From an uncultured bacterium (lineage in GTDB: Bacteria; Zixibacteria; MSB-5A5; JAABVY01; JAHJOQ01): DNA of 17,743 nucleotides. The position numbers are program-made. Below are positions 6,001 through 15,000 of this stretch, piece after piece. Where the stretch lies: NCBI GenBank assembly GCA_965369655.1, contig CBDUQR010000051.1, forward strand, positions 1 through 17,743, given 5' to 3'. Each line of letters begins with the position of its first letter. The first letter of the stretch is position 1.

Positions 6001-9000
6001 TCGGGACACGTTGGGAATTCAGATTCGGGAATCTTGTAGTGCGCCTCTTTGTAGCCGATTTCTTTTGCCGAGATTATGGAATCGACAGCGATACCGACAT
6101 TGTAGCCGTTGTGCATTTTCAAGACAAGATGTTTATCGTCGGCTGTTTCGGATCGCGGCAGGATCACACCGATAAACATGCCCTTGGTTGTCGACACCTC
6201 GACATCGGACCAGACTTTGACGCCGAGTTCCCTGAGCTTGCTCAGCGACGGTCCCTTGTATCCCTGATATGGATCATTACCCAATTTTGCACTCCATTAA
6301 GTACCAGAATTCATTGCGGCCGCTCTTGGCACAATCAGCCGCGCGACGCGACAGGGACACATCATAGCCGCTTTCAGCTATGATTGCAAGCGGTAATTTG
6401 TCGGTATGTAATGTAAAAAGAAGGGCCGCCCTTTCGGACGGCCCGAGAGTAGTTCCCCCTCATTTCAATCTATCAGAAGGAAAACTTCGCAGTGAAATAC
6501 TGATTGTCGTCAAACCACTCCGATTGTACCCAGGAGTAATCGAAACTGATATAGTTCTGACCCCATGCGTACTTCAGACCGGCGCCGAGAGACGCACCGT
6601 ACATGTACTCGTCCTGACTCGACGCGACATATCCGCCGCGCAGGAAGAACATGTCATCATACGAGTATTCCAGACCGCCTCGGAATTCATCCTCAGAGAA
6701 GTTGTTGGCCTGGAACGAGCCTGTAAAAACAGCCCTGTTGAGATCCTGGTTGATCGCATCCCACGACGCGCCAAACTGGATGAATGCCGGCAGTTCGAAT
6801 TCGGATGACTGAGAGCGGAAGTTCTTCGGCTTTGAGCCCGGCTCGGTTTCCGGAACATCAATGCTGACATTGAACCCTTCACCTTCGAACTTCATGTTCG
6901 GACCGAAGTTCTTCATCGCGACTCCAAACTTCAGACCCTGCCAGAGCGGATTGTACATGATTCCGACGTCAAACGACATCCCGTGAGCAGCCACCTGCTC
7001 GACCGCCTCGTTCACGTAGTTCGCAGTAATGCCGAACGACACACGATCAGTGAAAATGCGCGAATACGTGACGCCGATGATCGAAAAGGTCGGACTGAAC
7101 GTCTCACCGGTGCCAAGCGCCTCGTGGGTCGTGGTCTTGATGATCTCGCCGATCGAAATCACCTTGGCCTGAAACCCGATCGTTCCAAAATCCTCGAGGT
7201 TGGTCATGACACCAAAGTAGTTGATGTCGATACCAGCCATATACTCGAGGTGCGAGAACATCGCCTCGGTGCCATCGTGATGCGCTACTCCTGCTGGATT
7301 CCAGTAGAGCGCCTCAGCGCCGGACACGTCAGCGATATCTGCGCCTCCCATCGCAGTCGTTCTGCCTCCTATAGGTATGCGAAGTTCCTGAGCGCCCGCA
7401 GTACCGATGCGGTCACTGCTTCCAGCGTAAAGACAGGAAGCACCCAGAAGAACGCATACGAAGCAGATAATCACATATCTCGTCTTCATTGTCTTCCTCC
7501 TATTAGTAGAAGTCAAGCTGCTCTACCTCGGTGAATACAGCCATCTTGCCATACTTCGTACCGATCTCCGATTCAGCCAGCCATACGTAAATGCCGGAAG
7601 CCACGTAGAGCGCGTTATCAGTTCTCACATCCCAGATCAACTCAGAACTCTCACCTGCCGGATGCACCAACGTACGGACATGATCTCCGGCAAGATTGAA
7701 AATCCTGATCGTCGTTTCGACACCAGGCGGCAACTGAGTGAACTTTATAGCTCTGCTGAACTGATCACCTTCCCAATCCGCGTAGTTGTAATACGGATTG
7801 GGAACTACCAGAATGTTCTCCATGGTCCTGGCAACAACCGTACCATCATCCTCACCGATTCTCGGAGCCGAGAAACGGAAGACATCGGCAGGAGTGTTCG
7901 CCTTGTTTGAGATGAAGAGCATCGAATCGCCTTTGGTCCAGCCCTCATGCACGCCGTCGGGAGCCCATCCGTAAATCCTGTAATCCCAATCGTGGCGGGA
8001 AATTGGATTTTCCGTATCATAGCCGTAATACTCTGGATCTCCATCGTGATACGAGTACGAGAAGAAGTCGTTGCCGTAGATATTGGCGTCAGTCCCGCTA
8101 ATATCCTTCGTGAGAAACATGAAGTAGTCGTCGTTGTACCAGCGATAGTCACCGTAGAAATCGTAGAACAGAGGCCAGAGACGAACATCATCGTCGGGAC
8201 TGTCAATATCATCTCCGAGGTCATAGATAGCGAATGGAATCGAGAACTTAAAGAGTTCTTCATCTGCTGCGTTCGCCCAATCATCCCATCCTGTATTATA
8301 TCCCCAGATTGTATCACCATTGTCGTCGAGATACCTGATGGTTGTATATTCATCGCCATCATACTCCATCACAGGTCCCGGAACGGTATCTCCCGGCCCC
8401 GCAAGGAACTTAACGACAAAATCGCGGAAATTGGCGTTGTTACCGGCGTTGCGTCCCCCCATGTAGGCCTGATCGCCGTAGGAACTGAATTCGCCTTCCT
8501 CGTCTGCATAGACTGCATCGACCTGTTTGAAGCCGGGGGCTGGTCCAACAGTCCGAACCATCATGCCGTTGACAATCGGATAGGTGAAATCACCTGACTG
8601 ATTCCCTTGGCTCTCAAGAACCATAACATTGCTGGTCAGATCTTTCAGATTCCAACTGAAATCCGTGTTAAAGTTGACTTCATAGTCATGGCCTGTCAAA
8701 GAATCCTGAATCAGATACTCAACTTCGACGTATCCATCAGAGGAACCTGCTACGCGAAGACCATCCCTCGCCAGAGTCGCACCTGAACCCCACGGGGACA
8801 CAGTAATCGGCCTGATCTTGCTTTCGAGATTATATGAAAGCAAACCGGCGAAGTTTGGCCCGAAGAAGACGGAATCCTCAGGATATACCTGTTGGGCATT
8901 GACGCTGTAAGACGTAACGCCGAAGTAATACGGACGATACGCTTCCAGCGGATTACCTGACTCCGGATCACGAGTGATGTTGATCTGGTACCGCGTTCCG

Positions 9001-12000: not shown

Positions 12001-15000
12001 CGTACGGGTTCTTGGCCGCGTTCCAGCCATCATCGAGCTCATCCTGGCCGGTGAAATCATACCCGTAGTTGTTGACATCTGACCAGGCCTGTGGGCTGAT
12101 GACCCATGTCGAGTCGGTCTTGTCCTCGTTGAATTCCCACTGGCGATAGACCTTGTGCGGGACAAGGTGATTGTAGTAGCGTAGGGTATGGCGCAGGTAT
12201 TCAGCGCCCACCTTGATCTCGTTAGACGCATTCACCTGGCTCGTCATGTCGAACTTTGCGCCATAGTAGGACGACTTACGGTGCAGATAATCATCGTACA
12301 CGTAGCTCTCGTCCTGTTCCGTGGTATCGATATCCCAGGGTCGGTAAAGACTTGTCTCTTCAAACCTGAGATTACCACCCGGACGACCGTAGGCAAACAG
12401 GTCATCCCATGCCACACCGTCGCCGCGTTCGCGCTCTGTCACGAAGTGGTTGGCGGAGACTTCGTAGAACGTGCTCTTGGAGACACTGTGCGTCAGCTTG
12501 AGATACATGGAGTTGTTCTTATCCTCATACCTCGGCATGTGATCCTGATTGAATATGTACGATCGGACATACTGCTGCCACTTGTCGATCGAACCGAGAA
12601 TGCCAAATCTTACGGTAGCCTGCGGCGCGACATCGTACCGCAGTTTGCCCTGCCAGGTGTAACCATCGAGGTGGTTGTTCGGCAGAATCCCGTCGGCGGT
12701 CGCTTTCGGATTCCTGTCAGCCTGCCAGCGTCTTTCTCCCGACAGGTAGAACGACAAATCCGAAAAGTCCGGCGCCAGTGGTCCGGAAACGTCGAAAGCA
12801 TAGATATTATAATCGTAGCTCTCGCCGTGGAAATTGTCCGTGACCACTTCGAAATTGCCGCTGTAGTTCTTCGCGCCTTCCTTCGTAGTCACATTGATAA
12901 TACCGGCGGAAACTTTGCCGTATTCGGCGTTGAAACCACCTGTGGTAATCTGAATTTCCTCGATGGCATTGTTGTTGATCGCAGTAGTGGAAATCCCTGT
13001 GAGCGGATCCTGCTGCGAGAAACCATCGACGTAGTAGGCAACATCCGACTGACGGCCACCACGAATGTTCATGGCGGGTGAGTTTGTCGCCTCACGTCCA
13101 CCTCGCTGCCGGGCGCCCGGGTTTTCACTGAATGCCACAACGCCTGAGTTCAACCCAACGACATCCTGATAACCACGCGTCGGAAGGTGCTGAATCTCCT
13201 CTTTGCTGACGATCGTCAGCGTAGCGGTCTGGTCCTGCTGAATCAGCGGACGCTCAGCCCTGACTACGACCACCTCGCCGGTCTCGACCGTGAGCGGTGT
13301 CAGATCGAAGTCGTAGATCGTGGTCAAATCGATCGACACACGAATGTTCTCGACCTCAATCGAACCATAACCGACCAGTTGGGCCTTTACTGTGTAGGTG
13401 CCGACAGGGACATTCAGGATAACGTACGCCCCGTCTGCATTCGTCAGCGATCCGATTGTCGTTCCTTCGATAGACACGGCAGCACCTGGGACCGGTCCGC
13501 CCGTTGTCTTGTCCTTGATCACTCCCGATATCTTGCCGGTAGTACCCCCAAGCAGTATCGAAGCGGAGAACATGACAACGACGAGGAACGCCATCGGGAT
13601 GATAAGCAGTTTGCTTTTGCTCAAGTCAATCCCTCCTCTTGAGTGTTTCTCAATCCTAATTCTGTAGCTTTTGGATTTACTGGTCATCACCTCCTCATGA
13701 TTCGTTAGAGTGAATAAGCTTTATTCTATCTTTCTATCCACATTATCGCACTGAGTATATGCAGACTGAGCGAAGAGTACAAGTTGCCGGTCGATGTTGA
13801 AAAATGTCAAGCCACTCCACAGCCAAGAGCCTGCAACACACAAAAATGCTCTTATCTGCAAACAATTCTAAAGAATCCCGGAATCACGTCAACAAAAACT
13901 AACAGATTTTCTGCCGTCGGCAGACGCTTAAGTTCTTGAGTGTCCATAACTTTGAAGATCGGCAGAAGTGTGCATTTCTTGAACATTCAAAATATCCCGC
14001 AATAAACGCCCGGATCGATGCAGGTACGGCTATGCGTCAGCATGTGGAGTAATCGTGAGGCTATCCCACAAATACCCGTTCCGGCAGTTGTGACTGCCGC
14101 TGAAAGGGCATGTTGAAAAAGGTAATAAGCATGGGATTCCAGGCGATCGTTAGATCTCGCTGTCATTGCGAGCGACCGTCGGTCGCCGATCCCGTCATTG
14201 ACCCCGATCTTCTCCCTCCGGGATCCCGTGGGAGAGGGGATCCCCGAGGGACAGGGAGCGTGGCAATCTCATGTTTGGTATCACATTGCATGAACTGAGA
14301 TCACCACGTCGCTGTCGCTCCTCGTGATGACGACAACACAGACCCGCACCTAAATGGGTTTCTCAACAAGCTCGAAGGCGGGCGTGTGAACTGTCGGCTA
14401 TGGAATTCGTGTCAGGCATCAGTCTGCAAAAGATCGATTTGACATCATGAGTTGTTCTGGACTCTTACTTTTATTCGGCACGAATTATCGTGCGATTCGC
14501 TCGCCGGTTTATTATAATTGGCGCAACTTAGTGGTATGATTTGGTGTACTCTAAGGAACACTGACACGATTTGTTAGTCAAGATCGCCTGAGATAACGAC
14601 ACAGTGATGATAACAAGCAACAATCATAACAGAGACACAGCCATGGAGGTACGAAAGTGAAGAAAGCAACTCTGATTCTGATGGTCCTCTTCCTTGCGGC
14701 GTCTTTCACTAATGTCTTCGCCCTCACGGTGGACGAAGTCATCGAGAAGAACATCGAGGCGAAGGGTGGACGGGAGAAGCTTGAAGCCGTCAAGTCAATG
14801 AAGACAACCGGCAAACTGTTCGCAATGGGGGGAATGGAAGCCCCATTCACGATGTATAACAAACGGCCGGATCACTACAGATTCGAAGCCACAATTCAGG
14901 GCATGAGCATGGTGCAGGCCTACGATGGTGAGACAGCATGGAGCATCATGCCATTTGGCGGCAGCACCGAACCGCAGAAAATACCTGATATGCAGGCTCA

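Follow-up and report, generated by a model that had tools for sequence, protein, structure and literature searches.

A transporter, a predicted surface head and a PorV-family barrel in one operon

The window (the whole 17,743-nt stretch that was analysed, contig C51 of an uncultured Zixibacteria genome) carries three adjacent genes on the minus strand, encoding a TonB-dependent transporter (TBDT), a large predicted surface protein, hereafter the head, and a barrel of the PorV/PorQ family (Table 1). An earlier note had named this triad, and the operon signals bear it out: the TBDT and head genes are separated by 29 nt and the head and barrel genes by about 13 nt, AGGAGG sites are present, and a strong intrinsic terminator closes the operon. 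The sigma-70-like promoter candidate upstream is weak when taken alone, with 14 sites of such quality versus 9.0 ± 2.7 in shuffled sequence. Across the source genome, the chance that three of the nine TBDTs would have one of the 11 PorV-family genes at most two genes away is approximately 5e-5.

Table 1. Features of the operon in the window (positions count along the window)
Feature	Position	Strand	Basis
Sigma-70-like promoter candidate, upstream of operon	13865..13892	-	10/12 consensus positions
Three-gene operon (TBDT, head, barrel)	13690..6473	-	gene calls, profile matches, operon signals
TBDT, 983 aa	10739..13690	-	PF13715, PF07715 and PF00593, all above Pfam cut-off
Head, 1068 aa, predicted secreted surface protein	7503..10709	-	Sec-type signal peptide, no lipobox Cys
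Head residues 40-437, beta-supersandwich	9399..10592	-	fold match, invariant columns
Head residues 438-640, proline linker and FnIII-type domain with insertions	8790..9398	-	fold match
Head residues 641-950, beta-rich variable region	7860..8789	-	low conservation, composition
Head residues 955-1068, divergent T9SS-type CTD	7506..7847	-	PorZ model, Foldseek, subtype alignment, module profile
Beta-barrel, PorV/PorQ family, module-specific clade	6473..7516	-	NF033709 161.4 vs cut-off 90
Intrinsic terminator, strong, 3' of barrel (operon end)	6423..6444	-	9-pair stem, 8 G-C pairs, T-run

The TBDT consists of a signal peptide, a CarboxypepD-like N-terminal extension (PF13715, residues 54-142), a plug (PF07715, residues 151-263; score 43.9 vs cut-off 23.9) and a TonB barrel (PF00593; 90.5 vs 27) with a final Phe; residues ~136-145 include what we take to be a candidate TonB box. 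Judging from sequence, translation probably starts at the TTG at 13624, which is preceded by a ribosome site; five relatives have a stop codon within their TBDT matches, which start at query residue 17-18. The protein does not belong to the SusC/RagA family (TIGR04056, 82.6 vs cut-off 368). Five TonB_C matches above cut-off provide a TonB energiser in the source genome; by context, one of these is TolA-like and another lies within a different kind of protein.

The head has a hydrophobic helix at residues 2-22, judged from sequence and model, as its signal peptide and matched no family above cut-off in profile searches, being a member of an unnamed family with 4383 cluster representatives at E<=1e-30. 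Its AlphaFold2 model (mean pLDDT 83.6, pTM 0.78) opens with a supersandwich that resembles the N-terminal domain of GH15/65/94/116 enzymes and galactose mutarotases (1ulv_A: Z 19.2, rmsd 3.0 Å, 238 residues aligned) and has numerous invariant Asp, Gly and Pro residues; this fold by itself is no proof of glycan binding, and ESM Atlas returned only unnamed clusters for the N-domain. The best match of the second domain (7jgu_A: Z 9.5, rmsd 1.9 Å, 86 residues aligned) was tied with many other FnIII rows. No clear fold match emerged for residues 641-950: a search with residues 436-950 retrieved FnIII domains only and Foldseek nothing at E<=0.001, ~640-950 being barely covered. Residues 736-935 are 21% aromatic and 21.5% acidic, a composition that makes them a candidate binding surface. 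The fold searches matched no catalytic fold in the head, with the qualification that a catalytic domain could lie in the barely covered ~640-950.

The head ends in a divergent T9SS-type domain

The earlier note had assigned a T9SS-type C-terminal domain (CTD) to the cargo of both complete loci, C51 and C1. The CTD-like fold and the likeness to PorZ stand, but both proteins miss the type A cut-off: the window head has no match to TIGR04183/PF18962, models passed at 36 other places in the genome, and the C1 head scores 21.6 against a cut-off of 23. Because it fails to reach the type A model, we classify the window tail as a divergent subtype. It matches the PorZ model weakly (residues 957-1048, E 0.019), while the best Foldseek match of the whole head model is PorZ itself (5m11, E 3e-7), and the beta-sandwich at the extreme C-terminus is 27-34% identical to a PorZ-like tail, with motifs that align with those of type A tails. 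We also recovered the 34% likeness claimed for the C1 cargo (g212), whose tail shows 34% identity across 105 aa with the 773-aa protein at C10:51613-53934, assumed here to be the note's PorZ-like protein. As to type B tails, the window head has no CHU_C match, no window protein matches PorP, and the C1 head scores 15.2 for CHU_C against a cut-off of 27. The window tail bears marks specific to its module type, namely a loop inserted after PNPY and a C-terminal extension of 8 residues, and a profile of the module tails scores 71-127 for five proteins of the source genome versus <=42 for all other tails. Where a genome has several head paralogues, conservation is highest in the tail (0.69-0.72 vs 0.41-0.61).

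The barrel, which probably starts at the ATG at 7489, stays below the equivalog cut-offs for PorV (64.9 vs 250) and PorQ (82.5 vs 220). Since it has no Pfam match, UPF0164 is only a loose proxy for it. Its sequence matched no solved structure at E<=1, nor did it match BamG, for which the C1 barrel scores 28 against a cut-off of 250. In a quick IQ-TREE phylogeny with six non-module barrels on long branches, a branch with SH-aLRT 96 separates the three module barrel types from the eight other PorV-family proteins of the genome, including the PorU-linked PorV and the PorQ-like barrels, and each type forms its own group (support 100, 99 and 86). Four other barrels of this genome follow large CTD proteins that have no TBDT.

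Linkage to the barrel follows the tail

The C1 locus (C1:232173-238570) has the same gene order as the window, and the order TBDT-head-barrel is kept at 18/18 C1-type loci. The C51-type tail is equally faithful, as all 62 assessable homologues that carry it sit between a TBDT and a barrel (a start-codon artefact at locus L117 was corrected by hand), versus 0/14 passengers with another tail (12 dockerin-like and two type A) that adjoin either gene. That linkage depends on the tail lends weight to the view that carrying this cargo is what the barrel is for. At one locus (L048) the passenger is C51-like, the tail and the barrel C1-like. In three genomes the head-barrel pair occurs as a duplicated cassette; its barrels are 97-100% identical and its heads 60-64%. 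Mirror-distance correlations were discarded as evidence for pairing, as co-inheritance alone explains them; the barrel-tail correlation for the C51 type (0.35, second lowest of six pairs) is not singled out.

The third locus, C37:21336-27768, departs from the earlier description of a triad, which holds for C51 and C1. The gene after its barrel (25792-27660) was said to be a cargo cut by the contig end, yet it has a stop codon and the contig runs on to 27768; it encodes a complete 622-aa lipoprotein without a CTD. ESM Atlas gave only unnamed clusters for this lipoprotein, with DUF4960/fn3 at 0.86-0.88 as a mere lead. In 20 relatives the C37-type unit reads TBDT-cargo-barrel-lipoprotein with the head inside the operon, and in the source genome and eight relatives the head lies outside it, as scattered paralogues (3-13 matches) with one barrel. 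The CTD cargoes of the C37 type in the source genome most likely lie on C4, C6 and C17. In these nine genomes the barrel still adjoins the TBDT although the head has moved out. Among 41 genomes, C51-type TBDTs occur in 20, C1-type in 22 and C37-type in 40, the last mostly in single copy; the C37-type TBDT has three second copies, all of them solitary.

SusD is scarce and SprA widespread

No SusD_RagB (PF07980) match was found in the source genome, as the earlier note had claimed, with Bacteroides thetaiotaomicron matched as a positive control; the family occurs in 1/41 relatives and in none of five further triad genomes. The conservation of the triad, the scarcity of SusD and the tail-linked barrel hold, but that the triad is an alternative to the SusC/SusD capture pair is still something that we infer. 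We rejected a PUL-type unit in these lineages: a scan at E<=1e-8, which covered 93 of the 214 candidate proteins in the flanks, found no CAZyme (glycoside hydrolase or lyase), though unnamed enzymes would escape it. At four scanned loci (L033, L042, L044 and L093) amidase, NlpC/P60, S66, epimerase or S13 genes come after the triad. Peptidoglycan as the substrate is a weak lead, given that the window operon closes with a terminator and most loci have no such genes. Two-component genes flank some triad loci, and no regulator is a conserved neighbour across lineages among the scanned flanking proteins.

For secretion, SprA is above cut-off in the source genome and in 40/41 genomes, and PorU scores 641 (cut-off 420) in the source genome. 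Searches run without a positive control found GldM in 0/41 and 0/5 genomes and GldN in 0/1.

Comparison with known systems

Several known systems share parts of this design. SusC/SusD (RagA/RagB) of the Bacteroidota likewise comprises a TBDT with a CarboxypepD-like extension, its gene directly followed by that of a surface partner, and the proposed logic of capture and import is alike (PMC13543919). The triad TBDT, however, is far under the SusC cut-off, its partner is a beta-rich protein of ~1000 aa with a T9SS-type tail and no lipobox Cys rather than a lipidated TPR-helical SusD, a barrel gene always comes third, and no CAZyme neighbours were found. In the T9SS attachment complex (PorQ-PorZ, PorV-PorU), surface proteins stay bound to PorV-family barrels through CTDs that are not cleaved off, the PorZ tail being retained on PorQ (PMC10202324). 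The triad tail is PorZ-like, but its barrels form a separate group, its head is a supersandwich and neither a peptidase nor PorZ, and the unit is tied to a TBDT. Type B cargo genes cluster with PorP/SprF and their tails are probably uncleaved (PMC10202324), again a cargo with a private barrel, whereas the triad barrel belongs to the PorV/PorQ family, the window barrel has no PorP match, the window tail lacks a CHU_C match and a TBDT is linked. In BamA-BamG-BamH of the Bacteroidota BAM, the large barrel BamA has at its side BamG, a 14-stranded homologue of FadL/PorV that binds it and serves surface proteins as a platform (PMC12578637); in the triad the large barrel is a TBDT, and the window barrel has no BamG match. 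Finally, in BtuB-BtuG the surface protein that caps the TBDT is not a SusD either; BtuG differs in being a lipoprotein, and the parts of PMC10404256 drawn on here name neither a T9SS tail nor a third barrel.

A probable lidded importer and its rivals

We lean towards a lidded importer in which an uncleaved tail tethers the head to its private barrel, a reading that is probable and that draws on the gene order, operon signals, tail-dependent linkage, barrel clade, folds and paralogue counts. The head would cross the inner membrane via Sec and exit through the SprA translocon by means of its CTD. The module-specific barrel would then take the tail and keep it uncleaved, by analogy with PorQ and PorZ, and thereby hold the head on the cell surface beside the TBDT, where the supersandwich and variable region could capture or present a macromolecular substrate that is imported when TonB pulls the plug. 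The head would thus be a lid comparable to SusD or BtuG, with its tail and the barrel taking the place of a lipid anchor. The C37-type module would add a surface lipoprotein, and because its head genes can leave the operon and multiply, one TBDT-barrel set probably accepts several heads, seemingly up to about a dozen in some genomes.

Several observations sit badly with such an import module. The passenger also occurs with other tails far from any TBDT, so that it needs none, lone C37-type TBDT copies exist, the tail is under the type A cut-off, no CAZyme appeared among the 93 neighbours, and GldM is without a match in the 41 and five genomes (no positive control), which leaves the power for secretion unexplained. 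A rather unlikely alternative, that of separate, co-regulated parts, has the barrel display the head, in the manner of PorQ-PorZ or SprF-SprB, as a surface enzyme or adhesin in its own right, while the TBDT imports the products without touching it. It profits from the passengers with other tails away from TBDTs (0/14 linked), from the four barrels that follow large CTD proteins without a TBDT and from the lone TBDT copies, but a barrel that serves the head only would hardly stay by the TBDT after the head's departure in nine genomes, and the head has no catalytic fold match in searches that barely covered its residues ~640-950.

The near-universal, mostly single-copy C37 type fits housekeeping as well as nutrient uptake. 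Here the TBDT might draw on TonB to energise cargo release or barrel recycling in the type IX pathway, or else the upkeep of the outer membrane, in lineages with SprA but without a recognisable GldLM motor. We consider this improbable: SprA and the C37-type TBDT (each 40/41), GldM without a match in 46 genomes and the BamA-BamG-lipoprotein precedent (PMC12578637) speak for it, yet GldM and GldN were searched for without a positive control, the TBDT plug and barrel are ordinary, and three types in one genome, two of them patchy (20/41 and 22/41), with diversifying heads fit substrate specificity better. About a dozen diverged head paralogues in some genomes and the two-component genes beside some loci would suit heads that recognise host, prey or particle surfaces, with the TBDT relaying or importing a signal rather than bulk nutrient; with no regulator neighbour conserved across lineages, an N-terminal extension that is CarboxypepD-like and no signalling-domain family matched, we regard this as highly improbable.

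The lidded importer has a bolder, tentative extension that we would not yet bet on, in which the heads are exchangeable. A fixed TBDT and private PorV-family barrel, joined by the lipoprotein in the C37 type, might be docked in turn by a repertoire of three to about twelve T9SS-secreted heads, encoded at other loci, whose tails are conserved and whose passengers have diverged, and this would set the substrate range of one channel. Several SusD-poor phyla of the FCB group might rely mainly on this design of lidded transporter, which would physically couple type IX secretion to TonB-driven uptake. If heads are exchangeable, a change of secreted subunit could give one channel a new specificity, and this would lend itself to surface display as well.

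In a literature search whose coverage stopped short of subscription journals and supplements we found no description of the triad, which has apparently gone undescribed as a SusC/SusD alternative. For Zixibacteria and related uncultured lineages, almost devoid of SusD (1/41), it is a concrete candidate for the capture of large nutrients. It would give PorV-family barrels a role beyond shuttling, that of keeping a partner permanently mounted on a transporter, and add one more subtype to the T9SS tails; pipelines that look for SusC/SusD pairs would pass it by.

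A conserved three-gene module

Three adjacent genes on the minus strand of the window encode a TonB-dependent transporter (TBDT), a large, probably secreted surface protein (the head) and a PorV/PorQ-family barrel. Because the gaps between them are short, with AGGAGG sites, and a terminator follows, we regard them as an operon; their best named homologues are from Zixibacteria. The source genome (assembly 99.5% complete) holds 9 plug-bearing TBDTs and 11 PorV-family proteins over cut-off, and a barrel lies within two genes of 3 of the 9 TBDTs (chance probability ~5e-5).

Features of the window
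Feature	Position	Strand	Length	Remarks
TBDT	13690-10739	minus	983 aa	CarboxypepD-like extension, plug and barrel each pass their Pfam cut-off
Head	10709-7503	minus	1068 aa	no family over cut-off
PorV/PorQ-family barrel	7516-6473	minus		161 vs 90 bits
Terminator	6444-6423	minus		9-pair
LolA-like protein, then Sortilin/BNR-repeat protein	14657-17743	plus		divergent from triad; second protein cut by contig end
Protein over archaeal-type GatD models	4899-6284	minus		bacterial host; NF003217, 510 vs 310; TIGR02153, 508 vs 324
HD-domain protein and 174-aa protein	2770-4790	minus		low GC (41-43%); weak dGTPase matches (HD) and weak DarG C-terminal match, E 7e-6 (174 aa); possible defence or toxin-antitoxin pair
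LpoB-family lipoprotein, then lipoprotein-like protein	636-2740	minus	472 aa (second)	second protein without family match
BglII-like restriction endonuclease domain	114-611	plus		contig start

The module is real and conserved. Among 41 genomes of relatives, the types named after loci on contigs C51 (the window), C1 and C37 occur in 20, 22 and 40, respectively. Of 20 C1-type loci fetched, 18 keep the order TBDT-head-barrel and 2 are cut by contig ends. A quickly computed tree of 46 barrels places each module type in a group of its own, and a branch with SH-aLRT 96 separates all three from the other 8 paralogues of the source genome, among which branches are long. One locus (L048) combines a C51-like passenger bearing a C1-like tail with a C1-like barrel, a single case of tail and barrel going together. 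Private barrels are common in the source genome, where other large proteins with a T9SS-type C-terminal domain (CTD) at C3:83157-91688, C7:3593-9810 and C27:33320-37812 each precede their own PorV-family barrel(s), one of which is fused to TPRs.

The tail of the head predicts its neighbours

We sampled 100 loci with homologues of the head (20 chosen among the top matches and the best 80 of 582), which gave 106 head ORFs, or 90 after dereplication at 90% identity. The module tail, a divergent CTD, was present on 63, and in each of the 62 for which both sides were assessable, a TBDT gene preceded and a barrel gene followed the head (61 scored by script, L117 manually). Conversely, neither neighbour accompanied any of 14 heads with other tails, 12 dockerin-like (a label based on likeness to repeats of the source genome; PF00404 is listed for such homologues) and 2 assessable type A, 3 of the dockerin-like ones sitting in tandem immediately behind a triad (L047). 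A further 13 ORFs broke off at a contig end or were otherwise unassessable. We attach no P value to this linkage, since related loci are not independent. Record titles, which may be wrong for MAGs, include Zixibacteria, Eisenbacteria, Latescibacterota, Neomarinimicrobiota and Ignavibacteriae. Dockerin-like tails end many secreted proteins of the source genome and replace the CTD on head N-domains at C9:64974-67391 and C18:30609-32351. At L124:10428-15047, the first triad is immediately followed by another TBDT-head pair.

In an AlphaFold2 model of the window head (111 sequences; pLDDT 83.6, pTM 0.78), residues 40-437 form a beta-supersandwich as in GH15/65/94/116 enzymes and mutarotases (Z 19.2, rmsd 3.0 Å, 238 residues); in its secondary structure the model has nothing corresponding to the enzymes' catalytic helical barrel. 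An FnIII-like stretch (Z 9.5) spans residues 438-640; residues 640-950 are variable, partly modelled at low confidence and without a match in the fold search, and residues 736-935 are enriched in aromatic and acidic residues. The tail resembles that of PorZ, the top Foldseek match (E 3e-7), and the PorZ model matches residues 957-1048 weakly. Such likeness of predicted folds is no demonstration of function. This tail lies below the type A cut-off, with 36 other places in the genome above it, and a module-tail profile scored five proteins (contigs C51, C1, C6, C4 and C17) at 71-127 bits and all others at ≤42.

Heads encoded in trans

An earlier note had described the third gene of the C37 locus as a cargo cut by the contig end. 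That reading is ruled out, as C37:25792-27660 terminates at a stop codon inside the contig and opens with a lipoprotein-type signal, and its product has no CTD; it also has no Pfam or NCBIfam match, and 26 of 28 orthologues carry a lipobox pattern. Of 37 C37-type loci, 20 have the order TBDT-head-barrel-lipoprotein; 15 of these have no additions, in 3 the head-barrel pair occurs twice, 1 carries two heads and 1 has one more head close by. In 6 loci the sequence breaks off behind the head, 8 show TBDT-barrel-lipoprotein, the arrangement of the source genome, and the last 3 (L142, L143, L166) are second TBDT copies standing alone, without head, barrel or lipoprotein.

The source genome has three free-standing C37-type heads (contigs C4, C6 and C17; 45-54% identical) with no TBDT or barrel alongside, and neither gene lies within ~1.5 kb of any of the 12 free-standing heads that were fetched. 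Where the operon lacks a head (9 genomes), each genome has at least 3-13 head matches (median 6) and a single C37-type barrel; in the 20 genomes whose operon includes a head there are at least 1-3 (median 2). Matches include split pieces and N-domain-only forms, and the query, taken from the source genome, favours that genome's family, yet the highest counts fall in distant families. In duplicated cassettes the barrels are 97-100% identical and the heads 60-64% (assembly collapse is possible), and the tail is the most conserved part among same-genome head paralogues. Together, the free-head counts, the single barrel, the cassette divergence and the conserved tail suggest that one barrel accepts several heads. 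Alternatively, the free heads may rely on the general PorV, with PorU cleaving them. That the module is a fixed import platform with exchangeable heads, for which we looked up precedents and found none, is conceivable, though we lean against it.

A putative lidded transporter

We consider it fairly probable that the head is exported through SprA, that the private barrel retains it by a tail that is not cleaved, and that it sits at the TBDT as a putative capture lid. Genetically, a link between TBDT and barrel is supported chiefly by 9 genomes in which the head has moved away but the barrel is still the TBDT's neighbour. That the parts are co-regulated but separate seems unlikely to us; an envelope or secretion-energising device is improbable, and a sensing device very improbable.

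SprA is over cut-off in 40 of the 41 genomes, and the source genome encodes TonB proteins and PorU followed by a PorV. This PorV (C8:42337-45495) has 1052 aa; its barrel gene contains an insertion of ~700 aa that includes a Reg_prop propeller repeat. Searches run without a positive control found no GldM in these 41 and 5 further triad-bearing genomes and no GldN in the source genome, which has SprA and PorU.

SusD_RagB was detected in 1 of the 41 genomes (the positive control was found) and in none of the 5 others. The module would work like a lidded TBDT, but falls outside SusC/SusD. Excerpts of PMC13543919, which define SusD, contain neither 'T9SS' nor 'type IX'. The head belongs neither to type A nor to type B T9SS cargo; according to excerpts of PMC10202324, type B cargo genes cluster with PorP/SprF, and the PorZ tail stays on PorQ. 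Related excerpts describe BamG as a platform on BamA (PMC12578637) and T9SS confined to Bacteroidetes in a 2015 set (10.1101/031039); BtuB-BtuG is reported as a TBDT capped by a non-SusD surface partner (PMC10404256). PMC11205867 was also among the literature consulted. The module, assembled from known parts, is apparently undescribed, no description having been found in literature outside subscription journals and supplements.

Genomic neighbours

Among 93 scanned flanking proteins (of 214 candidates), mostly from housekeeping and amino-acid metabolism genes, there was no glycoside hydrolase or lyase. Glycans, peptides and cell-wall fragments are equally plausible candidate substrates. At four scanned loci (L033:786-5361, L042, L044 and L093), peptidoglycan-recycling genes (NlpC/P60, S66, epimerase, amidase, S13) directly follow the C51-type triad.
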